Shown here in pieces: positions 1 to 565 of a stretch of 565 bases of DNA (position 1 is the stretch's first letter; each line of letters starts with the position of its first letter). The notes below the pieces were generated by a model. The model was not told the origin of the DNA. It saw only the letters and a list, made by a program, of their open reading frames with translations, and searched no databases. Origin of the DNA: a phage. The DNA is taken from sequence record EF517097.1. One strand, written 5' to 3'. Both the position numbers and the translations under genes were made by a program.

Positions 1-441
1 GTTCCGGCTGCTGACCGTGTGTTCTACTGTGACCCAGATAGCTATTCTGCGATTCTGGCAGCACTGATGCCGAACGCAGCAAACTACGCTGCTCTGATTG
101 ACCCTGAGAAAGGTTCTATCCGCAACGTTATGGGTTTTGAGGTTGTAGAAGTTCCGCACCTCACCGCTGGTGGTGCTGGTACCGCTCGTGAGGGCACTAC
201 TGGTCAGAAGCACGTCTTCCCTGCCAATAAAGATGAGGGTAATGTTAAGGTTGCTAAGGACAACGTTATCGGCCTGTTCATGCACCGCTCTGCGGTAGGT
301 ACTGTTAAACTGCGTGACTTGGCTTTGGAGCGCGCTCGCCGTGCTAATTTCCAAGCGGACCAGATTATCGCTAAGTACGCAATGGGCCACGGTGGTCTTC
401 GCCCAGAAGCTACTGGTGCAGTGGTTTTCAAAGTGAAGTAA
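1..441 (+). CDS. 10A: Major capsid protein 10A, C-terminal ~147 aa (5'-partial; the gene starts upstream of the window); stop TAA at 439-441
   Basis: Frame 1 is open from nt 1; the ORF track's 19..441 is the same frame, started at an internal GTG. The translation (VPAADRVFYCDPDSYSAILAALMPNAANYAALIDPEKGSIRNVMGFEVVEVPHLTAGGAGTAREGTTGQKHVFPANKDEGNVKVAKDNVIGLF...AVVFKVK) matches my recollection of the T7 gp10A C-terminus except for about three residues. Codon usage (GGT, GCT, CGT, CTG, GTT) is that of a highly expressed E. coli-adapted gene. Confidence 0.93.
   Translation, partial: VPAADRVFYCDPDSYSAILAALMPNAANYAALIDPEKGSIRNVMGFEVVEVPHLTAGGAGTAREGTTGQKHVFPANKDEGNVKVAKDNVIGLFMHRSAVGTVKLRDLALERARRANFQADQIIAKYAMGHGGLRPEATGAVVFKVK
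423..429 (+). promoter_or_regulatory. -1 programmed ribosomal frameshift slippery site G GTT TTC (Val-Phe codons, third and fourth from the end of 10A)
   Basis: The heptamer GGTTTTC is 10 nt upstream of the 10A stop, in register G|GTT|TTC in the zero frame, and reads GGT TTT in the -1 frame. This is where I recall the T7 gene 10 frameshift being mapped, and the -1 frame downstream encodes the 10B tail. Confidence 0.75.
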
Positions 442-565
442 TGCTGGGGGTGGCCTCAACGGTCGCTGCTAGTCCCGAAGAGGCGAGTGTTACTTCAACA
501 GAAGAAACCTTAACGCCAGCACAGAAGGCCACACGCACCCGTGCTGCTAACAAAGCTCGAAAGGA
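423..565 (+). CDS. 10B: Minor capsid protein 10B C-terminal extension, read in the -1 frame after programmed frameshifting from the 10A frame (3'-partial; continues past the window end)
   Basis: The -1 frame (codons at positions divisible by 3) has its nearest upstream stop at TAA 372-374 and no stop from 375 to 565. From GGT 423-425 it reads G F Q S E V M L G V A S T V A A S P E E A S V T S T E E T L T P A Q K A T R T R A A N K A R K, matching my recollection of the T7 10B-specific tail (FQSGVMLGVASTVAASPEEASVTSTEETLTPAQEAARTRAANKARK...) with about three substitutions. Confidence 0.85.

Follow-up and report, generated by a model that had tools for sequence, protein, structure and literature searches.

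The window, as we call the whole stretch of 565 bases analysed here, aligns without gaps to positions 23564–24128 of the phage T7 genome (V01146) in a BLAST search. From T7 gene 10 it covers the 3' end of 10A, the site of the frameshift and the greater part of the 10B extension. Specifically, the 3' part of gene 10A, which encodes the major capsid protein, occupies positions 1–441 of the plus strand (codons 200–345 followed by a TAA stop codon at 439–441), as assigned from the BLAST alignment and the annotation of V01146, and translation of the window in frame 1 stays open until this stop codon. The heptamer GGTTTTC at positions 423–429 of the plus strand is the location of the join between 10A and 10B in the joined 10B coding sequence annotated in V01146, and we take it to be the −1 slippery site. 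This stretch is unaltered, with the window identical to the reference over positions 418–435. After the shift, the 10B reading frame (the −1 frame, plus strand) runs from 424 to the end of the window at 565 and continues beyond it to V01146 position 24162, as indicated by translation and the V01146 annotation. Translation of positions 423–563 in the 10B frame contains no stop codon, and the frame is open at the window end.

The top database matches to the window are all T7 itself, with 97.0–97.7% identity. The nearest natural relatives, namely Bas104, ESh2, JB01, phiA1122, C5, 3A_8767 and PHB20, are at most 93% identical to it. A 3-base indel is present in each of these seven relatives, whereas the window keeps the T7 length. 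Judged from the alignments, the window is a derivative of the standard T7 laboratory strain.

An ungapped position-by-position comparison of the window with V01146 reveals 14 differences in 565 bases, or 2.5% per site. All 14 are G:C→A:T transitions, and there are no A:T→G:C transitions, no transversions and no indels. On the coding strand of the window they split into seven C>T changes (positions 45, 135, 246, 325, 348, 542 and 557) and seven G>A changes (positions 111, 233, 309, 412, 436, 525 and 531). Nine of them are synonymous, five are missense and none is nonsense. Their placement along the window is even (KS p = 0.56). The first-pass annotation of this stretch had stated that all apparent differences from T7 are transitions, which is confirmed and strengthened by the single class of change found here. 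The seven sites it named (233, 412, 436, 525, 531, 557 and, with less certainty, 542) are all correct, including the codons and residues. However, its list was only half complete, as the differences at 45, 111, 135, 246, 309, 325 and 348, all of them synonymous, had been missed. Two of its statements are wrong: G→A does not predominate on the coding strand, where the two types are equally frequent, and synonymous changes are not scarce, as it had implied, but outnumber missense changes and are enriched over the 31% expected.

The synonymous differences in 10A, all on the plus strand and all absent from the earlier list, are TAC→TAT (Tyr) at 45 (T7 23608), AAG→AAA (Lys) at 111 (T7 23674), GGC→GGT (Gly) at 135 (T7 23698), GTC→GTT (Val) at 246 (T7 23809), AAG→AAA (Lys) at 309 (T7 23872), CTG→TTG (Leu) at 325 (T7 23888) and AAC→AAT (Asn) at 348 (T7 23911). 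At three of these sites the base of the window also occurs in nature: phiA1122 has T at 135, JB01 has T at 246 and four natural relatives have A at 309. In the 10B frame, CGC→CGT (Arg) at 542 (T7 24105) and GCC→GCT (Ala) at 557 (T7 24120) are synonymous as well.

Three missense differences change the 10A protein. GGT→GAT at 233 (T7 23796) replaces Gly277 with Asp, GCT→ACT at 412 (T7 23975) replaces Ala337 with Thr, and GAG→AAG at 436 (T7 23999) replaces Glu345, the final residue, with Lys; in the 10B frame the change at 436 reads GGA→GAA and replaces Gly with Glu. Gly277Asp sits in a segment, approximately residues 260–284, that is variable among the natural relatives, one of which has the same residue, while Ala337Thr and Glu345Lys are located in the 10A C-terminal tail. 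The two remaining missense differences belong to 10B, namely GAG→AAG (Glu→Lys) at 525 (T7 24088) and GCA→ACA (Ala→Thr) at 531 (T7 24094). All seven natural relatives also have A at 525, as do the T7 isolates P, P82, T7_AGU and PV223880/1, and this change therefore may not be a new mutation.

As a control for natural divergence, the same stretch of the seven Teseptimavirus relatives was compared with T7, giving 30–52 substitutions for each. In these relatives 18–47% of the substitutions are GC→AT, 24–42% are AT→GC and 23–50% are transversions, compared with no transversion in the window. The probability that 14 of 14 substitutions are GC→AT is 3.4e-7 at the pooled natural fraction of 34.5%, and 2.7e-5 if the most GC→AT-rich relative (47%) is used. 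The pattern in the window thus far exceeds chance under the natural spectrum. A second control is T7_270S, a heat-adapted laboratory clone evolved without chemical mutagen, in which only 16% of 45 substitutions genome-wide are GC→AT. Nine of the 14 sites have a base in the window that none of the seven natural relatives carries; at eight of them the relatives have the T7 base, and at 233 one relative has C. Because these nine sites are unlike all natural relatives, and because there are no AT→GC changes, T7 represents the ancestral state and the window the derived state.

A third control is provided by the T7 lines K (AY264775) and P (AY264777), the substitutions of which were counted against the wild type AY264774. 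Both lines are reported to come from the phylogeny experiment with nitrosoguanidine and to have been grown in this mutagen (Hillis et al. 1992; Bull et al. 2003). K contains 417 substitutions and P contains 307, about 93% of which are GC→AT in both lines, with C>T:G>A ratios of 191:196 in K and 159:127 in P. Under the combined K and P spectrum, the probability of 14 GC→AT changes out of 14 is 0.36. The check proposed in the first-pass annotation, alignment with T7 and its relatives, therefore comes out in favour of its main proposal: the T7 reference lacks the bases of the window, and all three controls favour mutagenesis of T7 by a GC→AT-specific agent over natural divergence.

The effects of the changes on the coding sequence bear the mark of selection. 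Of the possible GC→AT changes in the window, 97 would be synonymous, 212 missense and 6 nonsense; 9, 5 and 0 of these, respectively, are observed. The synonymous share of 9 out of 14 compares with 31% expected (binomial p = 0.01, which is suggestive but not overwhelming), and the per-site nonsynonymous-to-synonymous ratio in the window is 0.25. K and P show the same tendency over 16 large genes, where 53–54% of the changes are synonymous (34% would be expected), the per-site ratio is 0.43 in one line and 0.45 in the other, and nonsense changes are absent. The synonymous excess and the absence of nonsense changes therefore indicate that selection acted on viable phage. This pattern fits descendants of viable phage; neither damage to the DNA as such nor a mutagenised clone free of selection would give it.

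The order of the two types of change along the window, CGCGCGCCGGGGCC, contains nine runs, compared with eight expected at random; the two strands are thus balanced and finely interleaved. When one molecule is treated once, a clone inherits the lesions of one parental strand, and all of its changes are of one type. Fine-scale alternation between the strands therefore implies many independent rounds of replication and accumulation. Single-dose mutagenesis in vitro by hydroxylamine or bisulfite was accordingly rejected, as the changes of both strands are interleaved and as the extrapolated load of about 1000 changes per genome compares with at most 8 per hydroxylamine kill. For nitrosoguanidine at a high level, PMC6042481 gives about 4 viable mutations per T7 genome per infection. 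At this rate the load of the window would correspond to about 210 generations if all sites are counted, or 450 if only synonymous sites are counted, figures to be read as orders of magnitude.

The load of the window is high even by the standard of K and P. Its 14 changes in 565 bases compare with means of 5.8 in K and 4.3 in P, and are thus 2.3–3.2 times more numerous (Poisson P = 2.8e-3 and 1.6e-4, respectively); the maxima per 565 bases are 13 in K and 11 in P. Its per-site load of 2.5% is above the 0.8–1.1% of these sequenced lines. The excess is larger at synonymous targets, 9.3% of which are altered in the window versus 2.7% in K and 1.9% in P (3.5–4.8 times higher). The window is therefore either from an independent line more heavily mutated than K and P, or an extreme stretch of a comparable line. 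The high load points to a different or longer experiment, rather than being evidence against the mutagen mechanism. Extrapolated from the window, it amounts to about 1000 changes per genome.

The bases adjacent to the mutated sites provide some information about the agent. In K and P combined, 82% of the mutated guanines have a purine on the 5' side, with relative rates by the 5' base of 1.9 for G, 1.4 for A, 0.5 for C and 0.3 for T. The context in K and P is that expected for alkylation. In the window 10 of 14 mutated guanines (71%) have a 5' purine, versus a background of 51% (binomial p = 0.10), and the likelihood ratio over a model with no context is approximately 2 with purine and pyrimidine classes, or 1.4 with a four-base model. 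The 5'-purine context thus leans toward nitrosoguanidine and is not significant alone. The agent is most likely a GC→AT-specific chemical of the nitrosoguanidine type, 14 sites being too few to name it.

We infer that the window derives from a T7 laboratory line that went through many rounds of growth under a GC→AT-specific mutagen, most likely an alkylating one of the MNNG type, as used in the T7 evolution experiments of Hillis, Bull and Cunningham, and we put the probability of this reading at roughly three in four. The descent from T7, the pure GC→AT spectrum, the balanced and interleaved strands, the selection filter and a load above that of K and P are observed, whereas the chemical cause, the identity of the chemical and the number of generations are deduced. 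The phage would have gone through hundreds of generations, as an order of magnitude, in the presence of a mutagen that gives almost only G:C→A:T transitions. O6-alkylguanine, as is well established, would pair with T at replication and give G→A on the strand with the lesion and C→T on the other strand. If both strands received lesions in every generation, G→A and C→T would build up equally, interleaved along one line of descent. Only phage able to form capsids would leave descendants, and nonsense and most missense hits in 10A would be purged, leaving synonymous hits and a small number of tolerated substitutions at the surface or the C-terminus. A one-directional GC→AT load in mutagenised T7 is already known, with descriptions going back to the 1990s. 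Secondary sources (PMC5850294, PMC2491900 and PMC6042481) document serial propagation of T7 with nitrosoguanidine for the work of Hillis et al. (1992), of Cunningham et al. (1997) and of Springman et al. (2010), and in PMC5850294 and PMC2491900 the nonsense mutations reported for mutagen-propagated lines are all GC→AT.

The same history with another GC→AT-specific chemical is unlikely, though far from negligible. It would involve repeated treatment of free phage with hydroxylamine, or with an agent like ethyl methanesulfonate, in cycles of treatment and regrowth. Hydroxylamine modifies cytosine, which then pairs with A. Such an agent would also give 14 of 14 GC→AT changes with equal strands, and the 5'-purine share of the window, lying between the background and the value for K and P, is consistent with an agent insensitive to context. 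According to PMC6042481, T7 treated with hydroxylamine has a GC→AT-dominated spectrum, as does T7 treated with nitrosoguanidine. However, by the figures quoted in the same source, hydroxylamine treatment to a survival of 1e-3 to 1e-4 yields at most about 8 mutations per genome, or about 0.1 per 565 bases, and the 14 changes in the window would therefore need on the order of 100 cycles of killing and regrowth. The purine context, with its likelihood ratio of about 2, weakly favours the alkylating signature.

An origin outside biology, either through cytosine-deamination damage or conversion chemistry in a low-coverage assembly or through alteration in silico, is very unlikely. Deamination damage also produces C→T and G→A changes alone, and the absence of the window sequence from every collection searched fits such an origin. 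However, random hits would not favour synonymous sites as observed here (p = 0.01), and all six nonsense targets are untouched. Conversion of the bisulfite type would alter nearly all C residues of one strand, whereas 4–5% of C and G are altered in the window, with the strands interleaved.

Enzymatic deamination of cytosine in the cell, with the uracil copied as T, ranks lower still and is improbable. The enzyme could be of the APOBEC, AID or DddA type, a fusion to T7 RNA polymerase of the kind built for directing mutagenesis to chosen targets in vivo, or a host defence deaminase, and here too C→T and G→A changes alone would be expected. Because the strong phi10 promoter precedes gene 10 and the Tphi terminator follows it (V01146 annotation), the gene would be a prime target for a deaminase tethered to the polymerase. 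The sequence contexts of known deaminases, however, are near background in the window, with TC at 4 of 14 sites (background 18%), CC at 2 of 14 (24%) and WRC at 5 of 14 (31%), and the commonest base 5' of the mutated C is G (5 of 14). Clusters of changes on the same strand are absent, as shown by the nine runs. For a tethered deaminase, the probability of at most seven C>T changes out of 14 is 1.8e-4 with a coding-strand bias of 90% and 0.012 with a bias of 80%. We give even less credence to the more specific version in which a DNA cytosine deaminase, from bacterial defence or engineered, acted on replicating T7 over many infections while the phage stayed viable; it would require an enzyme without marked sequence context or strand preference, and would make the window a phage counterpart of APOBEC hypermutation.

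Least probable of all is that the window represents a natural close relative of T7 that diverged in the ordinary way. Five of its 14 states (135T, 246T, 309A, 436A and 525A) do occur in at least one natural relative, and the synonymous majority matches natural purifying selection. However, after divergence from a common ancestor, mutations of the T7 lineage itself would show up as A:T→G:C, of which there are none, the spectra of the relatives with their transversions and AT→GC changes put the pattern at a probability of at most 2.7e-5, and the window lacks the 3-base indel of all seven relatives. Recombination with one natural relative was rejected, since the five shared states are scattered over different phages.

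Three further signatures were considered. Hotspots of deamination at Dcm sites were rejected, as the window contains no CCWGG site. A CpG bias was likewise rejected, with 2 of 14 changes at CpG versus 23% of G/C positions. A UV-type dipyrimidine signature, counted by eye at 11 of 14 sites versus roughly 75% expected, is uninformative.

With mutagenesis of T7 in the laboratory as the preferred reading, the sequence should be labelled as coming from an artificially mutagenised derivative of T7 instead of being counted toward the natural diversity of its capsid gene, and should be excluded from studies of natural variation, codon usage and capsid evolution. It also adds a little to what is known of tolerance. 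Changes accepted by the capsid protein are Gly277Asp, in a naturally variable loop, and Ala337Thr and Glu345Lys, in the C-terminal tail, while the dispensable 10B extension tolerates three further substitutions. If the load is genome-wide, at about 1000 changes, the genome would be one of the most mutated among viable T7 phages, and would have some relevance to work on mutation load and lethal mutagenesis.

The sequence of the window is in none of the collections searched. In three segment-wise BLAST searches, no variant of the window other than 525A is shared with deposited sequences, and the closest deposited phage genome has at least 13 differences from the window. The protein collection contains no exact match to the 146-residue product of the window or to its 140-residue open reading frame starting with GTG. 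IMG/VR does not contain a 38-mer that spans four of the variants. A 20-mer with 531A and 542T has two matches each in the JGI metagenomes and the GTDB genomes, all four of which are chance matches (20–21 nt, otherwise unlike T7). PLSDB contains nothing close, only one distant T7-like match, and the combination of substitutions is not found in the 15 listed members of the 136-member cluster of T7 gp10A.

Compared with known systems, the window resembles retroviral hypermutation of the APOBEC3 type, where a viral genome also accumulates G→A/C→T changes in one direction. However, APOBEC hypermutation is strand-specific, clustered and bound to TC or CC, whereas the changes in the window are strand-balanced, interleaved and free of that context.

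K and P resemble the window in several respects. Like the window, these lines have the same T7 strain as ancestor, balanced C>T and G>A changes, an excess of synonymous changes and essential genes without nonsense changes; their GC→AT share is about 93%, versus 100% in the window. The missense changes in K gp10A (V31I, T167I, A172T, A179V, A194T and T260I) are typical products of GC→AT changes. K and its derivative K115 have no mutation in common with the window, and P and its derivative P82 share only 525A with it. K, P, K115 and P82 are linked to Bull, Badgett, Rokyta & Molineux 2003 (J Mol Evol 57:241), and so is the wild type AY264774. As summarised in PMC6042481, GC→AT changes dominate, as in the window, in T7 populations propagated at a high nitrosoguanidine level (Springman et al. 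2010) and in T7 exposed to hydroxylamine (Bull et al. 2013).

Two mutagenised T7 populations are of interest as regards the load. The population genomes of Springman et al. 2010 reportedly averaged about 245 mutations (0.6%), well under the 2.5% of the window. Hahn, Rausher & Cunningham 2002 reportedly sequenced short stretches of four genes in clones of a T7 line propagated for 2500 generations. This line is a possible lead: it would fit both the shortness of the record and the high load.

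Base comparison at window position 525 (T7 coordinate 24088) shows that all seven natural relatives (Bas104, ESh2, JB01, phiA1122, C5, 3A_8767 and PHB20) carry A, and that the G of the T7 reference is the exception. A is also present at the equivalent position in T7 isolate P (AY264777), its derivative P82, T7_AGU (LC730325), and recombinant clones PV223880/1. Either a G-to-A change recurs at 525 in laboratory T7, or T7 stocks are polymorphic at this site, and therefore the 525 change may not belong to the induced mutation set.

The Gly277Asp substitution of 10A (window position 233) falls inside a stretch, residues ~260–284, that diverges widely among natural members of the cluster. 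Asp is also found at residue 277 in one Logan-derived relative. The stretch from ~260 to 284 is probably a tolerant surface loop.

MES8771830.1, encoded on a 2.4-kb contig, is a 263-residue fragment of the major capsid protein of T7; it is labelled "hypothetical protein, partial [Cutibacterium acnes]" and probably represents T7 contamination of a bacterial assembly. NZ_CP155630.1, a 38,276-base Yersinia pestis "plasmid" of marmot source, has 76% identity to the T7-like capsid gene; its size and content suggest that it is a T7-like phage genome entered as a plasmid.

The heat-adapted clone T7_270S (MZ375286), which was evolved in the laboratory without a chemical mutagen, contains 45 substitutions, three of which are located inside the region of the 565-base window. 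The substitutions are mainly transversions and A:T-to-G:C changes, with G:C-to-A:T changes accounting for just 16%. This spectrum differs from that of natural divergence and from that of chemical mutagenesis alike; replication in an error-prone background may be what it reflects.

Isolate K (AY264775) has a tandem CC-to-TT change at the equivalent of window positions 182–183, and a C-to-T change at the equivalent of 558, adjoining the window's own change at 557. Counting of gap columns in whole-genome alignments indicates that K and P each lack ~840–850 bases compared with wild type (AY264774), and that K115, a derivative of K, lacks ~2280 bases. Gene tables place the loss in the early region, with gene 0.7 absent. 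Parallel deletions have been reported for T7 lines propagated in the presence of mutagen (PMC5850294), and the early-region loss fits this pattern.
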